A DNA stretch of 32,000 nt from Gammaproteobacteria bacterium (lineage in GTDB: Bacteria; Pseudomonadota; Gammaproteobacteria; Xanthomonadales; Rhodanobacteraceae), in assembly GCA_021324095.1 (NCBI GenBank), contig JAJPJT010000005.1:1-32000 (forward strand). Direction: 5' to 3'. Position 1 is the stretch's first letter. Every line of letters starts with the position of its first letter. Position numbers and translations under genes: made by a program. Shown here piece by piece: positions 2,547-25,460 of this stretch. The notes under the pieces are model-generated. The model was not told the origin of the DNA. It made no database searches and saw only the letters and a list, made by a program, of their open reading frames with translations.

Positions 2547-2680
2547 TCCCGCATTCTAACGCGTGCTGAACGAGGACCCGGACTCCAACCGAATGCGTGA
2601 TCCGCAAAACATTTGCCGGGACGATCACATCGCTATGCTCCGCAGCGAGGCCAGCCGGCCGGTCAGGACGGAGGTGGATT

Positions 2681-3079
2681 GTGCATATTCGCAATGTTGC
2701 ATTGCTCGCCGCGCTCGCGGCGGCAGGGGGAGCGGCCGTGGGCTTCACGCCGGCGGCATCCGCGCAGGTCAGTTTCAGCCTCAGTGTGGGCGTTCCACCG
2801 CCGCCGCCGCGTTACGAGGTGGTGCCCGCGCCGCGACCCGGCTACGTGTGGGCGCCGGGTTACTGGAACTGGAACGGCGGAGCGTACGTGTGGGTGGCCG
2901 GCGTGTGGCAGCCCGCGCGACCCGGCTACATCTATTACAGCCCGCGCTGGGTGCACTACGGCGACCGCTGGGAATATCGGCGGGCCTACTGGGGTCCCGA
3001 CCCGCACTGGCGCGGACGCCACGACAACGGGTGGCATCGCGGCTGGGATCACGACCACGGGCACGGTCACGATCACTGA
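2681..3079 (+). CDS. Secreted YXWGXW/WXXGXW-repeat protein with His-rich C-terminal tail
   Basis: GTG at 2681 lies 6 nt after GGAGG (2670-2674). The signal peptide is VHIRNVALLAALAAAGGAAVGFTPAASAQ. Also present are a PPPPP tract, GYVWAPGYWNWNGGAYVWVAGVW and the tail GWDHDHGHGHDH. The track ORF 2597-3079 is the same frame with an extended start. Confidence 0.8.
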   Translation: MHIRNVALLAALAAAGGAAVGFTPAASAQVSFSLSVGVPPPPPRYEVVPAPRPGYVWAPGYWNWNGGAYVWVAGVWQPARPGYIYYSPRWVHYGDRWEYRRAYWGPDPHWRGRHDNGWHRGWDHDHGHGHDH

Positions 3080-3101
3080 GCACCGCGGGTTCTTTCATCT
3101 G

Positions 3102-3128
3102 GCCCGGCGCGCAAGCGCCGGGCTTTTT
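3102..3128 (+). terminator. Rho-independent terminator
   Basis: gcccggcgc-gcaa-gcgccgggc followed by ttttt. Confidence 0.8.
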
Positions 3129-3181
3129 CATGCAGGTGCGGAGCTCCGGCCGAATGCACAGGAATGCTGATCAACTCGCCT

Positions 3182-3215
3182 CGTCATGCCAGCAAAGGCC
3201 GGCATCCAGCTCTTG
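3182..3215. repeat. REP hairpin family 'cgtcatgccggcgaaggccggcatccagc', copy 1
   Basis: The sequence is cgtcatgccagcaaaggccggcatccagctcttg, with stem ATGCC(A/G)GC / GCCGGCAT. This is the source of MPAFAGMT-type spurious ORFs. Confidence 0.8.
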
Positions 3216-3378
3216 TCCAAGGCTTGCGCGCTTCGCGACGTATTTGGCTGCGCCAACACGTGCTGAATCAATCCCGACGTGATGTGAATGAACGAGCGGT
3301 GAAAATGCGGGTTTGCGGCGCCTCGTGGGTATGCTCGGATCGAGGCCGGGATTCGGCCGACCACGATGGAGGTGTCTC

Positions 3379-3744
3379 GTGCACACACGCAACCTTGCAT
3401 TGCTTGCCGCGCTCGCGATGGCAGGTGGAGCCGTCACGGCCTTCGCGCCGACAGCATCCGCGCAGGTGAGTCTCGACATCAGCGTTGGCAGACCGCCACC
3501 GCCACCACGTTTCGAACGTCCGCCGCCGCCGCGCCCGGGCTACGTCTGGGCGCCGGGCTACTGGAATTGGAACGGCGGAAGCTACGTATGGGTGCGCGGC
3601 AGTTGGCATCGCGACCGGCCGGGCTACATCTACTACGGCCCGCGCTGGGTGCACCGCGGCAATCGGTGGGTCTATCACCAGCCGTACTGGGGCCGTAACC
3701 CGCACTGGCGTGGGCGCCGTGACTACGACCGTCACGGACACTGA
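3379..3744 (+). CDS. Secreted YXWGXW/WXXGXW-repeat protein, tandem paralogue
   Basis: GTG at 3379 follows GGAGG (3369-3373). It reads VHTRNLALLAALAMAGGAVTAFAPTASAQ...PPPPP...GYVWAPGYWNWNGGSYVWVRGSW...DYDRHGH. It is in frame with track ORF 3313-3744. Confidence 0.8.
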   Translation: MHTRNLALLAALAMAGGAVTAFAPTASAQVSLDISVGRPPPPPRFERPPPPRPGYVWAPGYWNWNGGSYVWVRGSWHRDRPGYIYYGPRWVHRGNRWVYHQPYWGRNPHWRGRRDYDRHGH

Positions 3745-3781
3745 CCATGACGGCCACCGATCGAGCTTCCATCTGAAGCCG

Positions 3782-3809
3782 GCCCGGCGCGCAAGCGCCG
3801 GGTTTTTTT
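3782..3809 (+). terminator. Rho-independent terminator (duplicate of 3102-3128)
   Basis: gcccggcgc-gcaa-gcgccggg followed by ttttttt. Confidence 0.8.
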
Positions 3810-3861
3810 CACACGAGCACGGAGTCCCGGCATGTGCGCCGGGACGCTGACCAACACACCT

Positions 3862-3895
3862 CGTCATGCCGGCGAAGGCCGGCATCCAGCTCTTG
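3862..3895. repeat. REP hairpin family 'cgtcatgccggcgaaggccggcatccagc', copy 2
   Basis: cgtcatgccggcgaaggccggcatccagctcttg. Confidence 0.8.
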
Positions 3896-3983
3896 ACCAG
3901 GTTTGCGTGCTTCGCACGACGTATTTGACTGGGCCCCGGCCTGCGCCGGGCGACGGTTTTGCAATTCAGGCGGGGCGCGGCGC

Positions 3984-5255
3984 TCAATGCGATGCGCCAT
4001 GCAGGCAAATGCCGGCATCCAGTGACCGCGAAGCCGGCGTATGCACGTGTTCCTGCCGCAAGCCGTAGCCGAACAGGCGCGCGGGTCGGTGCCGGATCGC
4101 GCGGAAGCGGAACAGGAAGCGCAGCAGCGCCGGCACGCGTGGCGCCTCGCCGGAAGTTTCCAGCACGCGCGAAATCAGGCGTTTCTGGATCGCGATCTGG
4201 ATGCGCTGCACGACCTTCACCGGCCACTCGCGCCGTCGCTGGATTGCGGCGAGCACCGATTCGTCGATCGCGCGGCCGTCACGCAACGGCTGTGCCAACG
4301 CATTCGCGGCGGCCACCGCGTCCTGGATTGCGAGATTGATGCCGACGCCGCCGATCGGCGACATCGCGTGCGCGGCATCGCCGATCAGCAGCAACCCCGG
4401 CTTGTGCCAGCGCTCCAGCCGATCCACCTGCACGGAAAGCGTGCTGACCTTGTCCCACGACTCGATGGCGCCGCGCCGATCGGCGAGGAAAGGCGCGAGT
4501 TGCACCACCGTTTCCCGCAAGGCATCGATCGAGCGTGCGCGCAGCGCGGCGTCGCTGCCCTTCGGTACCAGAAATGCGATCTGCCAATAGTCGTCCCGGT
4601 TCAGCATCACCATCATGTGCCCGCGATCGACGATGCCGAAGGTGTCCTGCGGATCCGATTCGCTGCGCGGCATCCGGAACCACAGCACGTCCATGGGCGC
4701 GCCGTATTCCCGTGCCTTCAGGCCAGCGGCATCGCGCAACGTCGAATGGCGGCCGTCGCAGGCGACCACCAGATCCGCGCGCAATTCGTAATCGGCTTGC
4801 GGCGATTTCACGCGCACGCCGACCACGCGACCGCCCTCTTCGATCAATCCGGTCGCGGCGTGCTGCATGCGCAGGTCGAACGTCGACAATCTGCGCCCGG
4901 CGTCGGCCAGCATGTCCAGGAAATCCCACTGCGGTACCAGCGCCAGATAGTCGTAAGGCTTCAATCCGCGAAAATCGACGATCTGTTGCTCGCGCCCGGC
5001 GACGATGCCGGCGAGGTGATCGACCCGGCGTTGCGGCAGCTTGTCGAATCGATCACGCAGACCGATCTCGTCGAGGATCGCGAGGGTCGAAGGATGCACG
5101 GTGTCGCCGCGGAAATCGCGCAGGAAGTCGCCGTGTTTTTCCAGCACGGAGACCGGAACGCCGGCGCGCGCAAGCAGCAGTCCCAGCATCATTCCGGCGG
5201 GACCGCCGCCGACGATGCAGCAGCGGGAATGGTTCTGCGTCTGCGTGGCGGACAT
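3984..5255 (-). CDS. FAD-dependent monooxygenase/oxidoreductase (UbiH/PHBH-fold family)
   Basis: The dinucleotide-binding N-terminus is CCIVGGGPAGMMLGLLLARAGVPVSVLEKH, followed by ...DLVVACDGRHS...LLIGDAAHAMSPIGGVGINLAIQDA. ATG 5255 (MSATQ) has GGAG 7 nt upstream. The track start at 5267 is an alternative. Confidence 0.85.
   Translation of the reverse strand: MSATQTQNHSRCCIVGGGPAGMMLGLLLARAGVPVSVLEKHGDFLRDFRGDTVHPSTLAILDEIGLRDRFDKLPQRRVDHLAGIVAGREQQIVDFRGLKPYDYLALVPQWDFLDMLADAGRRLSTFDLRMQHAATGLIEEGGRVVGVRVKSPQADYELRADLVVACDGRHSTLRDAAGLKAREYGAPMDVLWFRMPRSESDPQDTFGIVDRGHMMVMLNRDDYWQIAFLVPKGSDAALRARSIDALRETVVQLAPFLADRRGAIESWDKVSTLSVQVDRLERWHKPGLLLIGDAAHAMSPIGGVGINLAIQDAVAAANALAQPLRDGRAIDESVLAAIQRRREWPVKVVQRIQIAIQKRLISRVLETSGEAPRVPALLRFLFRFRAIRHRPARLFGYGLRQEHVHTPASRSLDAGICLHGASH
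3994..4027. repeat. Degenerate third copy of the same REP, overlapping the 3' end of the monooxygenase CDS
   Basis: gcgccatgcaggcaaatgccggcatccagtgacc. Confidence 0.6.
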
Positions 5256-15744: not shown

Positions 15745-15778
15745 ATTTATGAATGCAACCGTGGGCAGGATGACCACG

Positions 15779-15900
15779 CCCCGGACAGCACATGGACGCG
15801 CGGCGACCCGGGGCCCATTGTCAGGTCAAAACGCCCCAGCCCCGGACGGCACATGGACGCGCGGTGATCCGGGGTCCATTGTCCGAACAACTGACTCCAC
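15779..15900. repeat. Two tandem 61-bp units with a ~45-bp conserved core
   Basis: ccccggacAgcacatggacgcgcggCgaCccggggCccattgtc compared with ccccggacGgcacatggacgcgcggTgaTccggggTccattgtc. Each core has a CCCCGG(A)/(T)CCGGGG stem. Confidence 0.85.
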
Positions 15901-16746: not shown

Positions 16747-16806
16747 ACGAACGGCGGCACCATGCCGCCGGTTACGCGGCGCTGCTGCCTACCGAAGGAG
16801 GAAATC

Positions 16807-17328
16807 TTGAACCCAATCCTCAACATTGCAGACGCGCAATACGCTGACCTGGCCGAAGGCTCGCGCCGAATGGGTTCCGAAATGCCCGCCGAACGTTTCG
16901 GCGGCCGTCGCGCGGATCTCGGTCGCGCCATCGGCGCGCGCAAACTCGGCTACAACGTCACCGTGATCGCACCGGGGAAGCGTGCGTTCCCGCGCCACAA
17001 CCACCGCGTCAACGAAGAAATGTTCTTCGTGCTGGAAGGCCATGGCGAAATCCGCATCGGCGATGGGCTTTTCCCTGTTCGCGCGGGCGATTTCGTCGCC
17101 TGCCCGGCCGGCGGCCCGGAAACCGCGCACCAGTTTCGCAACACGAGCACCGCCGACCTGAAGATACTCGCGGTCAGCACCATGGAATCACCCGAAATTT
17201 GCGATTACCCGGATTCGGGCAAGTTCGGCGTGCTGGCGTTCTTCGGCGCAGACGCCGAAGGCCGTCCGCAGATGTTCGCGCACATTGGCCGGCCCGGCGA
17301 ATCACGCGACTATTGGGAAGGCGAATAA
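16807..17328 (+). CDS. Cupin-domain protein (paralogue 1)
   Basis: TTG at 16807 lies 5 nt after GAAGGAGG (16794-16801). The N-terminus LNPILNIADAQY aligns with MYANILNLADLE of the neighbour. The metal motif is PRHNHRVNEEMFFVLEGHGEIRIGD...AHQF. Confidence 0.8.
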   Translation: MNPILNIADAQYADLAEGSRRMGSEMPAERFGGRRADLGRAIGARKLGYNVTVIAPGKRAFPRHNHRVNEEMFFVLEGHGEIRIGDGLFPVRAGDFVACPAGGPETAHQFRNTSTADLKILAVSTMESPEICDYPDSGKFGVLAFFGADAEGRPQMFAHIGRPGESRDYWEGE

Positions 17329-17330
17329 CG

Positions 17331-17849
17331 ATGTACGCCAATATCCTGAATCTCGCCGACCTCGAACTGCGCACCGAAAGCCCCGAACGCGCGCCGCATG
17401 GGGAAGGCGCAGGCAAGTACGACATCCGCTGGGCCGAAATCGCCAGCCGCATCGGTGCGCGCAAGCTCGGCTACAACCTTACGGTGGTCGCGCCGGGCAA
17501 ACGCAACTGCCCGTTCCACAGCCATCGTGCGGAAGAAGAAATGTTCTTCATCCTCGAAGGCAGCGGTGAACTGCGTTACGGCGACCGGCGTTACCCCTTG
17601 CGCAAAGGCGACGTGATCGCCTGTCCCACGGGCGGTCCCGAAACGGCACACCAGATTATCAATACGGGCGATATCGAGCTGCGGTATCTGGCGGTCAGCA
17701 CCCTCGCGCCCATCGAGATCTGCGAATACCCGGATTCCGGGAAGTTCGGCGTTTACGAGGATTTGCCGGACCCTGCCCATGCAAGCCATCCACGCTTGCG
17801 CCATGTCGCACGACATGAAGATTCACGCGATTACTGGGAGGGTGAATAG
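17331..17849 (+). CDS. Cupin-domain protein (paralogue 2)
   Basis: The ATG lies 2 nt after the stop of paralogue 1. It reads GYNLTVVAPGKRNCPFHSHRAEEEMFFILEGSGELRYGD...AHQI...SRDYWEGE. It is internal to track ORF 17199-17849. Confidence 0.85.
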   Translation: MYANILNLADLELRTESPERAPHGEGAGKYDIRWAEIASRIGARKLGYNLTVVAPGKRNCPFHSHRAEEEMFFILEGSGELRYGDRRYPLRKGDVIACPTGGPETAHQIINTGDIELRYLAVSTLAPIEICEYPDSGKFGVYEDLPDPAHASHPRLRHVARHEDSRDYWEGE

Positions 17850-17864
17850 TGTCATGAGTTGCAC

Positions 17865-18328
17865 TTCGGCAAGAGCAGTCATCGTTGACACGGATAAACA
17901 CGGATGAACACGGATACAGCACTGGCAGAAGCAGACCTGACGGAACGTGTGATTGGCGTCTTCTATGCCGTATACAACGAACTTGGGCATGGATTTCTGG
18001 AGAGTGTGTATGAAAACTCGCTTGCGCCCGCACTCCGCGAAGCCGGCATTGCCGTCGTGCAACAGGCACCTTTGCGCGTGGACTTTCGTGGACGTACCGT
18101 AGGCGAGTTCCGTGCAGACCTGCTCGTAGAAGATCGGTTGATCGTGGAGATCAAGTCCGTGTCACAGTTGGCGCCTGTCCACGAAGTTCAACTCGTCAAT
18201 TATCTGAAGGCAACTGGCATTCGCGTCGGGCTGTTGATGAACTTCGGTTTGCAGCCTCAATTCAAGCGCCGGATCTTCGGGACTGTTGCATCCCATCCGC
18301 TTTGATCCGCTTTTATCCGTGTCCAAAA

Positions 18329-18331
<3 letters not shown>
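17865..18331. mobile_element. Inverted-repeat-bounded unit carrying the GxxExxY gene (putative selfish or mobile cassette; no transposase)
   Basis: GACACGGATAAA (17887-17898) is the exact reverse complement of TTTATCCGTGTC (18312-18323). Both arms consist of three ~10-bp sub-repeats (ACACGGAT / ATCCGC). Flanks (ttcggcaAGAGC ... gtcCAAAAATG) are shared with the gene-less copy at 23424-23562. Confidence 0.6.
17904..18305 (+). CDS. GxxExxY protein (PD-(D/E)XK nuclease-like superfamily)
   Basis: It reads ...VIGVFYAVYNELGHGFLESVYENSL...RADLLVEDRLIVEIKSV...QLVNYLKATG...GLLMNFG, which includes the GxxExxY and D...E-x-K signatures. Third codon positions are visibly more A/T-rich than in neighbouring genes. 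Confidence 0.88.
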   Translation: MNTDTALAEADLTERVIGVFYAVYNELGHGFLESVYENSLAPALREAGIAVVQQAPLRVDFRGRTVGEFRADLLVEDRLIVEIKSVSQLAPVHEVQLVNYLKATGIRVGLLMNFGLQPQFKRRIFGTVASHPL

Positions 18332-20317
<1,986 letters not shown>

Positions 20318-23423: not shown

Positions 23424-23562
23424 TTCGGCAAAGAGCGAAAATCCTTTGACACGGATCAAAGCGGATGAACACGGACAGATACGGAGATGACTCCTGCTCC
23501 TGACAAGACGGCAACGGTTTTTGATCCGTTCTGATCCGCTCTGATCCGTGTCAAAAATGCTT
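23424..23562. mobile_element. Gene-less (internally deleted) derivative of the GxxExxY element
   Basis: The perfect 13-bp termini are TTTGACACGGATC / GATCCGTGTCAAA. The arms consist of CGGAT / ATCCG sub-repeats. It retains ATGAACACGGA (MNTD), the first codons of the GxxExxY gene, then stops after 12 codons. It shares the outer flanks ttcggcaaAGAGC and CAAAAATG. Confidence 0.65.
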
Positions 23563-23609
23563 GTGCTGCGCCGTTACAATGACCGGTTTTCGCTGGGCGG
23601 GGCAAACGC

Positions 23610-25060: not shown

Positions 25061-25460
25061 GGCGCTTGCGACGGTCCGGGGAACTGTCGCGCCGAACGCG
25101 CGGGTGAGGCGGATGCCGAACGGGCAGCGCGCCAGGGATGGCTGCTTGCCTCAGGCTACGACCGCACTTGCGTCAAGCGAGCGCGAGGCAGGAGCCGAGC
25201 GGCTGCGCGCCATGGATGGCTGCTTGCATCAGTCCTTCCGCGCGCTTGCGACAGCCCTGGGGACTGTCGCGCCGAACGCGCGGGTGAGGCGGATGCCGAA
25301 CGGGCAGCGCGCCGGGGATGGCTGCTTGCCTCAGGCTACGACCGCGTTTGCGCGATGCGAAGAACCGCATCGCGCGCGTCCAGCAAGGATGAGCGCGGAG
25401 CCCGAACGGCTGCGCGCATCCGACGGCTGCTTGCTCGAACCGCCAAGGCGGTTACGCGCC
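25061..25460. repeat. 180-bp tandem repeat, two full units and a degenerate third
   Basis: 25061-25165 and 25241-25345 are ~95% identical with a period of exactly 180 bp. The sub-motif gcgcgcc-N4-ggatggctgcttgc recurs four times. Confidence 0.85.

Follow-up and report, generated by a model that had tools for sequence, protein, structure and literature searches.

A GxxExxY nuclease gene in a repeat-bounded cassette of a bacterial liu operon and its possible partnership with small phased palindromes across phyla

A nuclease cassette between phased repeat arms in a liu operon

We analyzed a 32-kb stretch of DNA (the window, to which positions refer unless a locus number is given) from a metagenome-assembled genome (MAG) of the Rhodanobacteraceae, in which a cassette at about 17853–18335 carries a small GxxExxY nuclease gene between two arms of phased repeats. 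The cassette lies in a cluster for leucine/isovalerate catabolism (liu), all genes of which are on the + strand, in the order enoyl-CoA hydratase (ECH), two tandem cupin paralogues, cassette, liuD and, farther on, HMG-CoA lyase. The left host flank is a Cupin_2 gene (17331–17849, +; Pfam PF07883, E = 2e-17) with its stop codon TAG at 17847–17849, and the right host flank is liuD, or mccA, encoding the methylcrotonyl-CoA carboxylase alpha subunit (18329–20317, +; Pfam matches to Biotin_carb_N, CPSase_L_D2, Biotin_carb_C, BT_MCC_alpha and Biotin_lipoyl). We give an even chance to the reading that this segment represents a very widespread family of small palindromic elements in its gene-carrying form.

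The gene is bounded by an exact 12-bp inverted repeat, GACACGGATAAA at 17887–17898 and TTTATCCGTGTC at 18312–18323, which a repeat search extended to arms of 29 nt each (17887–17915 and 18295–18323) with 83% complementarity. The left arm consists of three direct, phased 10-bp units of the form (G)ACACGGATnn (ACACGGATAA, ACACGGATGA and ACACGGATAC), each comprising ACACGGAT and two variable bases, and the right arm mirrors it with ATCCGCTTTG, ATCCGCTTTT and then ATCCGTGTC; the reverse complement of the right arm, GACACGGATAAAAGCGGATCAAAGCGGAT, is the usual arm flavour in Xanthomonadales. The ATG of the nuclease gene arises within the left arm (…CGGATGAACACGGAT…), in which a GGA resembling a Shine-Dalgarno (SD) sequence lies one unit (9 nt) upstream, and only the first 11 nt of the right arm are translated in this cassette. 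Outside the left arm is an outer segment of the insert (17853–17886, +) that has no counterpart at empty sites and contains the box TTCGGCAAGAGC (17865–17876). On the other side, the right arm is followed by a terminal box, CAAAAATGTTTG (18324–18335), which includes the liuD start codon at 18329–18331, 6 nt past the arm, and a TGT at 18330–18332.

We then compared the frequency of the repeat units in the window with that expected. The core ACACGGAT was observed 6 times against an expectation of 1.1, a number reached in 0 of 100 shuffles, and the two-unit pattern was observed 7 times against 0.25. All of these occurrences fall in two places, namely the cassette and a gene-less copy of the element at 23448–23552, which the initial annotation had not mentioned. 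We attach next to no credence to the view that the inverted repeat is a chance feature or an assembly artefact; the metagenome-assembled origin of the source genome is all that speaks for it, whereas the shuffle statistics exclude chance, the cassette is present in independent NCBI, JGI and Logan assemblies, and the arms occur in isolate genomes.

A scan of positions 17600–18600 for promoters and terminators found none, a TTGACA at the arm boundary having no matching –10 element. The cassette contains no transposase or integrase, nor do the gene calls of the 20-kb source locus include one. In the minimum free energy (MFE) fold of the cassette RNA the two arms pair; compared with shuffled sequences, the fold of the whole cassette had no added stability (z = –1.24), and we accordingly dropped a strong RNA-structure reading of the gene-carrying form.

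The nuclease gene and its product

The only open reading frame (ORF) of the cassette (17904–18305, +) encodes a protein of 133 amino acids that matches the profiles PF13366 PDDEXK_3 (135.6 bits, cutoff 22; E = 1.3e-39) and TIGR04256 GxxExxY (134 bits, cutoff 35; E = 3e-39); an hmmscan of the protein returned no Pfam family besides PF13366. It contains both the motif G30-F-L-E33-S-V-Y36 and the catalytic signature D72, E82-I-K84, and conservation among 63 homologues is complete or at least 90% at the GxxExxY positions and at D72, E82 and K84. An AlphaFold2 model (pLDDT 90.8) showed the element order H-H-E-E-E-H-E-E, which fits the PD-(D/E)XK fold, and a Foldseek search with this model retrieved Cas4 SSO0001, the lambda exonuclease family and archaeal Hjc (probability 0.98–1.0, TM score 0.4–0.57). 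As far as the predicted structure can tell, these matches are to the generic PD-(D/E)XK core. With its catalytic residues conserved, a confident model and a ratio of nonsynonymous to synonymous substitution rates (dN/dS) of 0.08–0.26, which is indicative of purifying selection, the enzyme looks intact.

The base composition of the gene differs from that of its surroundings. Its GC content at third codon positions (GC3) is 0.59, compared with 0.71–0.84 in eight neighbouring genes, and its overall GC content is 0.545, compared with 0.647 for the window. A sequence search of the PDB found no homologue, the sole match being spurious (E = 0.35). A reading as a defence-system or phage protein was set aside, as PADLOC gave only sub-threshold matches to Cas4 (E = 0.02–0.07) and PHROGs gave none.

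PF13366 comprises 30 424 clusters at 50% identity, 12 664 of them at E ≤ 1e-10, and some of its members are tandem two-domain fusions. In a survey of PD-(D/E)XK proteins its function was entered as 'Unknown' (PMC3424549), and a further paper mentions GxxExxY solely as a possible confusion with Cas4. In the literature searched, coverage of which was partial and excluded curated family descriptions, we found no description of a function for GxxExxY proteins, of these repeat sequences or of an association between the two, and the link to phased-repeat palindromes is an addition of the present analysis to PF13366. The family is among the larger bacterial families without an assigned function, and the phased-decamer arms would offer it a candidate substrate.

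These results bear out much of the initial annotation, which had recognized the GxxExxY nuclease fold (both profiles match far above their cutoffs), the exact 12-bp inverted repeat around the gene, the extension of that repeat into mirrored arms of three sub-repeats of about 10 bp, the position of the gene's ATG (17904) inside the left arm, third codon positions richer in A/T than those of the neighbours, and a right end that runs into the ATG of liuD. It had also noted the lack of a transposase or integrase, and we can add that no classical recombinase is associated with the arms at the 118 listed loci described below.

A gene-less copy and a family of phased palindromes across phyla

The second place in the window, a gene-less copy of the element (23424–23563), lies between a GNAT gene (stop codon 23407–23409) and an SDR gene (start 23610). 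It consists of an outer box, a left arm (23448–23486), a 37-nt spacer, a right arm (23524–23552) and a second outer box (GACACGGATCAAAGCGGATGAACACGGAC…(37 nt)…GATCCGTTCTGATCCGCTCTGATCCGTGTC). Its arms (31 nt) are 87% complementary, and on either strand it can form, as RNA or single-stranded DNA, a hairpin with a folding energy (ΔG) of –57 kcal/mol (z = –6.2). The similarity between the cassette and this copy continues beyond the arms, on the left as TTCGGCAA(A)GAGC about 10 nt before TTGACACGG, and on the right as GTC(C)AAAAATG(T/C)TTG. The box of the left outer segment recurs in the gene-less copy at 23424–23436, and the right terminal box recurs after it as CAAAAATGCTTG (23552–23563) and matches the outer box of the family, whose consensus in Xanthomonadales is CAAAAGCnTTTT followed directly by GACRCGGAT. 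Because the same box flanks the gene-less copy, the liuD start codon belongs to the terminal box of the element and not to host sequence.

To survey the arms more widely, we scanned one genome per GTDB species with the pattern GACACGGAT-N5-CGGAT-N5-CGGA and obtained at least 118 loci in about 12 phyla, compared with about 17 matches expected by chance (18 specified bases and ~1.2e12 positions, with a uniform base composition assumed). Among the matches listed, from which the host, base and spacing figures of this section are taken, the hosts were Alpha-, Beta- and Gammaproteobacteria, Desulfobacterota, Acidobacteriota, Chloroflexota, Planctomycetota, Verrucomicrobiota, Bacteroidota, Nitrospirota, Omnitrophota, Calditrichota and Cloacimonadota, and isolate genomes with arms included those of Magnetospirillum aberrantis, Azospirillum doebereinerae, Geobacter argillaceus and Desulfosarcina variabilis. 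Positions left unconstrained by the pattern were themselves biased (A 75%, C 78% and A/G 99%), giving a repeat unit of nnACRCGGAT, that is, an 8-nt core and two variable bases spanning one helical turn. The initial annotation had remarked on this spacing for the arms of the cassette and had proposed a search for further copies; the 10-bp phasing of the conserved core is family-wide, and further arms exist both in the window and in many genomes.

Arms of the elements contain 2–4 phased units of about 10 bp and are capped by a terminal box with a T-run or A-run. For 78 arm pairs, the spacer was shorter than 40 bp in 47 and 40–150 bp in 22, and a gene was enclosed in only two, both times a GxxExxY gene (the window and a Phycisphaerae MAG, locus L118). 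The dominant form is therefore the gene-less palindrome, and a minority of elements carry or adjoin a GxxExxY gene; the cassette itself, which the initial annotation had treated as the element, is the exception. Several genomes contained 3–4 loci each. For example, the Anaerolineae MAG Zod_Metabat.1210 has four near-identical copies of about 135 bp in differing contexts, three of which are at contig ends, as a high-copy repeat predicts. Long ORFs are depleted of elements, which lay fully inside one in 48% of cases, compared with 91% of random placements, in a test that is crude because GC-rich DNA is full of spurious ORFs.

When the inter-unit spacer bases of one arm were compared with those of the other, 63% were complementary (null 40 ± 5%), and a value this modest indicates that the motif is kept more strictly than the hairpin. 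An alternative is that a conserved host protein, perhaps a nucleoid or replication factor, binds the phased ACRCGGAT arrays, and that the link to GxxExxY is secondary. In its favour, the 8-nt core is near-invariant across about 12 phyla, which is unusual for repetitive extragenic palindromic (REP) sequences or miniature inverted-repeat transposable elements (MITEs), the spacers point to conservation of the motif rather than the hairpin, and three loci (L045, L046 and L092) contain long head-to-tail arrays. However, other GxxExxY clades pair quite different motifs with the same architecture (see below), the arms are distributed patchily and in several copies, as a mobile repeat would be, and to our knowledge the core matches no host-factor site. 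We regard this alternative as improbable.

The head-to-tail arrays, at positions 2200–2330 in L092, consist of at least eight decamer units in a single orientation. They occur in MAGs of Saprospiraceae, Planctomyces and Bacteroidetes, and that of L092 begins right after a GxxExxY gene. A single arm match, either a candidate element or contamination, was seen in a MAG of an ANME-2 archaeon (L105).

Empty sites and history of the cassette at the liu locus

To compare occupied with empty sites, we scanned metagenomes with the adjacent cupin protein, which returned 80 loci. In the closest relatives without the cassette (cupin 70–83% identical), the stop codon of the cupin gene overlaps a GTG start codon of liuD as TAGTG (GAATAGTGTTCGAG; …GAATAgtgttcgag; …GGGAGGGCGAATAgtgttcgag…; junction TAGTGTTCGAG / GAATAGTGTTCGAGCGC), and no GxxExxY gene was present within 2.5 kb. 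At least 13 close relatives lack the cassette. In the window and three occupied relatives, a relic TAGTGT is followed by an insert of about 480 bp; the TGT at 17850–17852 is a remnant of the ancestral liuD start, kept by all four occupied loci. The cassette was inserted at a junction where cupin stop and liuD start formerly overlapped.

Arenimonas, Rudaea and other lineages of the order Xanthomonadales have nuclease homologues with 63–75% identity immediately 5΄ of liuD, where they follow a hydratase or glyoxalase gene. In many of these lineages the nuclease ORF continues across the right arm as far as the liuD ATG, with which it overlaps (ATGTTTGA). Orthologues as distant as 63% protein identity retain CGGAT cores at a 10-bp phase on both sides, irrespective of translation of the right arm. 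When members of the order are compared in pairs, nuclease identity rises and falls with that of liuD and ECH, in rough co-divergence. Among the three closest cassettes, the arms are 89–97% conserved, compared with 64–71% for the neighbouring non-coding outer segment; the left arm is 97% identical to that of L003, the right arm is 89–92% conserved among orthologous cassettes, and the cassette of L006 has lost exactly one 10-bp unit. Such conservation indicates that the arms, as well as the gene, are under constraint.

On the liuD tree, loci with the cassette interleave with empty ones. For example, liuD of the occupied locus L006 is 87.7% identical to that of the empty locus L141 and 80.5% identical to those of other occupied loci, and its nearest neighbour was an empty locus in all 500 of 500 replicates of a nearest-neighbour bootstrap. 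Among occupied loci, nucleotide identity is higher for the nuclease gene (0.86–0.88) than for liuD (0.79–0.81), the cupin gene (0.76–0.79) and ECH (0.78–0.80), and its synonymous divergence (dS) is 0.31–0.62, compared with 0.68–1.14 for the flanks. The interleaving and the lower divergence of the nuclease gene together indicate that the cassette was exchanged or re-inserted after these lineages split. Only nucleotide 1 and nucleotides 10–12 of liuD co-segregate with occupancy, and no position does so within the 120 nt at the 3΄ end of the cupin gene. The co-converted host tract is therefore at most 12 nt, and almost no flanking host sequence moved along. By these comparisons, the cassette is both old, being Xanthomonadales-wide, and polymorphic in the clade of the window itself.

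The liuD start is not the only site used. In L187, L189 and L205 the cassette is at the glyoxalase–cupin junction instead, which is 3–4 nt wide in empty relatives, and at about 2160–2500 of L206 the same junction holds a decayed cassette, reduced to a left arm and about 25 nt from the start of the GxxExxY gene.

We also considered that the cassette might be a long-domesticated and immobile part of the operon, in which the arms are cis-acting RNA or DNA signals and the protein serves a host function; the arms might act in translation initiation or coupling, in RNase III processing as in rRNA intervening sequences, or as autoregulatory binding sites. Consistent with this possibility, the position 5΄ of liuD is constant across Xanthomonadales, the nuclease co-diverges with liuD and ECH under purifying selection, the ORF overlaps the liuD ATG through the right arm in many lineages, the arms pair in the MFE fold, and no promoter or terminator of the cassette's own was found. 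However, close relatives with and without the cassette are intermingled, the flanks have diverged more than the cassette, the GC3 of the gene is still foreign, many relatives have no cassette, the fold of the whole cassette is unexceptional against shuffles, and the same architecture occurs in unrelated settings (between fabD and fabG, downstream of radA and in phage genomes). We consider domestication unlikely, a little more so than the alternative of independently moved palindromes discussed below.

As regards the initial annotation, its placement of an insertion at the liuD (mccA) start agrees with the overlapping stop and start codons in the cassette-free relatives. In the comparison of empty and occupied sites that it had called for, the empty junction was resolved, the loci proved to be interleaved and the insert was placed at about 17853–18335. 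An ancient fixed feature, for which it had expected neither empty sites nor additional copies, is at odds with the presence of both and with the occupation of another operon junction elsewhere. The view of a mobile cassette holds insofar as the insertion is polymorphic and less diverged than its flanks; it does not extend to a recent hop at the liu locus, where the cassette is Xanthomonadales-wide and under purifying selection. A homing-like manner of movement, which it had suggested, is a poor fit in its classical form, given a co-converted host tract of at most 12 nt.

Other contents were seen at these junctions. In L181 (Ga0210383_10067156, positions 1341–1900), the same cupin–liuD junction holds a gene of DUF559 (PF04480, E = 1.3e-35) bounded by its own inverted repeat, CCCTCCCTTTCAAGGGGAGGGTTGGGTGGGGATGGTG / CACCATCCCCACCCTAACCCTCCCCTTGAAAGGGAGGG. 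This locus represents a parallel class, a small nuclease gene in a repeat-bounded cassette; Pfam lists DUF559 without an assigned function. In L162–L180 and L186, the cupin–liuD junction is in a third state, a conserved spacer of about 100 nt (…GCTGCGCCGCGCATCGGC…ATCTGCTAGTTTTAC.GGCTTTGCATCGACACGAACG…) that is unrelated to the arms and may be a regulatory region or a small RNA. The cassette remnant of L206 is followed by an unrelated palindromic repeat, GTCATGCCCGCGCAAGCGGGCATCC…GGATTCCCGCTTGCGCGGGAATGAC.

Association of the nuclease with the repeats and co-variation of the motif

In about 100 of the 120 closest homologues, the N-terminus M-N/D-A/T-D corresponds to a translated arm, ATGAAC(G/A)CGGAT, and most of the 120 end in translated right arms (…(S/H)IRV…, …DPRxSVA… and similar). 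At the DNA level, the order arm–gene–arm was found in Arenimonas, Rudaea and other Xanthomonadales, Anaerolineae, Phycisphaerae and an unclassified proteobacterium, and in Gemmatirosa (L239, Gemmatimonadota) a complete gene-less element adjoins the GxxExxY gene. We further compared, all against all, the ORFs within 1.5 kb of the arms at the 118 listed loci, and found that GxxExxY was the sole recurrent non-housekeeping family; no transposase family recurred within this distance.

More distantly related GxxExxY genes have the same architecture with other motifs. A Sphingomonas gene between fabD and fabG has three copies of ACGCGAAG, a Bacteroides finegoldii gene downstream of radA has three copies of CACAGAGG, and genes in phage-like contigs have three copies of CGCAGAAA, or units of ACAGAAT or ACACGAA. 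In a small neighbour-joining (NJ) tree without support values, the nucleases associated with ACRCGGAT formed one clade, with hosts in Gammaproteobacteria, Chloroflexota, Planctomycetota, Fusobacteriota and Gemmatimonadota, and the Sphingomonas, Bacteroides and phage proteins fell elsewhere. Judged from these sequences, the repeat motif follows the phylogeny of the nuclease and not the host taxon.

These observations bear on a further alternative, namely that the palindromes are an independent REP- or MITE-like family moved by another enzyme or by host processes, and that GxxExxY, as a selfish and free-standing nuclease gene, targets them or homes into them, or is a passenger, and so comes to lie in or beside palindromes that it does not mobilize. 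Among the arm pairs listed, gene-less copies exceed gene-carrying ones by about 40 to 1; in Gemmatirosa (L239), a phage-like locus (L227) and Fusobacteria (L241), the gene is beside rather than within complete palindromes; and in the window, the gene-less copy has an interior unlike the nuclease gene and the right arm of the cassette shows the local Xanthomonadales flavour of gene-less copies. All of these speak for independent palindromes. On the other hand, no other enzyme family recurs near the arms at the 118 listed loci, the motif type tracks the nuclease clade and not the host taxon, and the empty cupin–liuD junction holds no palindrome, so that the insertion brought arms and gene together. 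We consider independent palindromes unlikely, albeit the most serious of the alternatives.

The nuclease gene is rare on plasmids (8 of 72 556 records), a single locus was found in IMG/VR with the profile of this clade, and a search for arms on the same 72 556 plasmid records yielded one weak match. As arms and gene are nearly absent from these collections, we rejected the idea that plasmids or phages carry the element in the Xanthomonadales clade.

Several GxxExxY loci deserve separate mention. On the Sphingomonas parapaucimobilis plasmid NZ_CP155749.1 (L240, 482837–483265), an annotated GxxExxY gene separates fabD from fabG, with which it is co-directional, leaving gaps of 33 nt and 2 nt; this is a further insertion into a core operon junction. 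In phage-like contigs of gut metagenomes (L227–L238) with DNA ligase and ParA-like genes, GxxExxY genes have a conserved context and are flanked by complete small palindromes of ACAGAAT and ACACGAA units; four tandem units of about 60 bp lie upstream in L233 and L236, and L231 contains two GxxExxY genes within 3 kb. In three phyla, arms were found directly upstream of a gene for an FdsA-like molybdopterin oxidoreductase (L022 at 7684, L094 at 6775 and L100 at 369–860), in L100 together with a GxxExxY gene; this recurrence of the Mo-oxidoreductase at three loci is probably a coincidence within a large family.

Proposed mechanism and comparison with known systems

The association described above suggests a role of GxxExxY proteins as the enzyme partners of small palindromic repeats shared across phyla. 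For the system represented in the window, the chances seem to us balanced that it is REPIN/RAYT-like or MITE-like, with a stand-alone PD-(D/E)XK nuclease as its enzyme. More tentatively, and with somewhat less than even confidence, we propose that GxxExxY/PF13366 is the dedicated enzyme of an undescribed class of bacterial and phage palindromes built from phased units of 9–10 bp, which it would recognize as a multimer and propagate or maintain, in at least 12 phyla and in lineage-specific pairs of motif and nuclease.

According to this proposal, the nuclease, probably multimeric, would bind the phased 8-nt cores cooperatively, three per arm and on one face of the helix; alternatively, its substrate would be a hairpin or cruciform stem extruded from the arms. 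It would nick or break DNA at or beside the element, host replication or repair would then copy the element, and the nuclease would serve its own copy and the gene-less copies in trans, as RAYT does for REPINs or an insertion sequence (IS) for MITEs. At the liu locus, the nuclease would be read from the mRNA of the liu operon without a promoter of its own, the left arm supplying the SD-like GGA and the nuclease ATG and the right terminal box supplying the liuD ATG. The insertion would in this way have swapped the overlap of stop and start codons for element-borne starts and left the operon unbroken.

Several points weigh against this proposal. The part of the nuclease in mobility is deduced from its association with the arms and from the co-variation of motif and protein, and the protein tree behind that co-variation is a small NJ tree without support values. 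We know of no strand-transfer activity for a PD-(D/E)XK nuclease of this kind, with 133 amino acids. Between the interior of the gene-less copy and the nuclease gene there is no significant similarity. The TGT at 17850–17852 and at 18330–18332 may be a 3-bp target duplication or may be microhomology with the terminal box, and alignment of the four Anaerolineae copies defined neither the ends of the element nor a target duplication. In addition, the history at the liu locus looks largely vertical, and a conserved host factor could be the reason why ACRCGGAT hardly varies across phyla.

Among known systems, the closest in its working is REPIN-RAYT, which combines REP doublets with a REP-associated tyrosine transposase (PMC3116915, PMC5581495, bioRxiv 10.1101/2021.07.10.451892). 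Both systems have many short, mostly intergenic palindromes and one small enzyme gene flanked by inverted repeats, and in both the enzyme gene is long-lived at a fixed locus and co-variant with the repeats. Inheritance of the enzyme gene, predominantly vertical in REPIN-RAYT, may be largely vertical here as well: synteny and co-divergence hold across Xanthomonadales, but in the clade of the window occupied and empty loci are interleaved and the gene is younger than its flanks. The likeness fails in a defining feature, because the enzyme is a PD-(D/E)XK protein of about 130 amino acids and not an HUH/Y1 transposase of the IS200/IS605 type. Moreover, the arms consist of phased direct sub-repeats of 9–10 bp and not of a single REP hairpin, one core is common to many phyla, and the gene occurs in host operons as well as in phage-like genomes.

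IS elements and MITEs share with the present elements terminal inverted repeats (here 29–31 nt, 83–87% complementary), a gene-less majority and near-identical copies in differing contexts of one genome, although the two copies in the window are diverged from each other. The ends of Tn7 and Mu carry several phased transposase sites, and several phased sites are likewise present at the ends of these elements. In contrast, no DDE, serine, tyrosine or HUH transposase was found here, no target-site duplication is secure, the gene-less copies are not recognizable as deletion derivatives, and the whole element measures only ~70–480 bp. A description of the gene-less copy as a MITE formed by internal deletion was not adopted, as its interior is unlike the nuclease gene.

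Homing genes provide another comparison. I-Ssp6803I is a homing enzyme with the PD-(D/E)XK fold, and seg and mob are free-standing genes of T4-like phages. As in such cases, a small nuclease gene without its own promoter is inserted co-directionally between conserved genes, is present in some close relatives and missing from the same site in others, has diverged less than its flanks and has a foreign base composition. Unlike them, it has structured repeat arms that are abundant on their own, and the co-converted tract is no longer than 12 nt. I-Ssp6803I was absent from the 50 listed Foldseek matches, and the nuclease had no sequence match to any solved structure.

Intervening sequences of 23S rRNA, which are excised by RNase III, carry a small ORF of the S23p four-helix-bundle family. 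The cassette resembles them in having a small ORF within inverted repeats that can form a long transcript stem inside a host transcription unit, and differs from them in its protein-coding operon, its ORF family and its arms, which are also dispersed DNA repeats. We rejected an rRNA intervening sequence, as the cassette lies between a cupin gene and liuD and an Rfam search of the entire window at gathering thresholds gave no match. An integron gene cassette was likewise rejected; no integrase was called in the 20-kb locus, and phased decamers are present on both sides instead of a single 3΄ attC.

If the proposal is correct, these elements would constitute a second and mechanistically distinct case beside REPIN-RAYT, the only well-studied persistent system of repeats plus enzyme in bacteria. 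They would account for common spurious N- and C-terminal extensions of predicted proteins and for contig breaks in environmental genomes, would show how an element can settle in essential or catabolic operons without breaking them by supplying its own start codon and that of liuD, and would provide small nucleases that are sequence-specific and recognize modular units of 8 nt. If it is wrong, the locus still stands as a clear example of a gene, selfish or domesticated, that is embedded in an operon and whose empty site is resolved.

Other repeats in the window

The two Cupin_2 paralogues upstream of the cassette (16762–17328 and 17331–17849) are 68% identical at the nucleotide level over 300 nt; the closest occupied relatives have a glyoxalase gene and a single cupin gene in their place. 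Upstream of the hydratase gene, two 61-mers lie in tandem at 15763–15884. Repeats elsewhere in the window include one of 144 nt (660–803 and 1062–1205, 91% identity), another of 119 nt (25062–25180 and 25242–25360, 92% identity), and a 680-bp tandem duplication at 2656–4022 with GTCATGCCGGCGAAGGCCGGCATCCAG hairpins at 3171–3209, 3851–3889 and 3984–4022.

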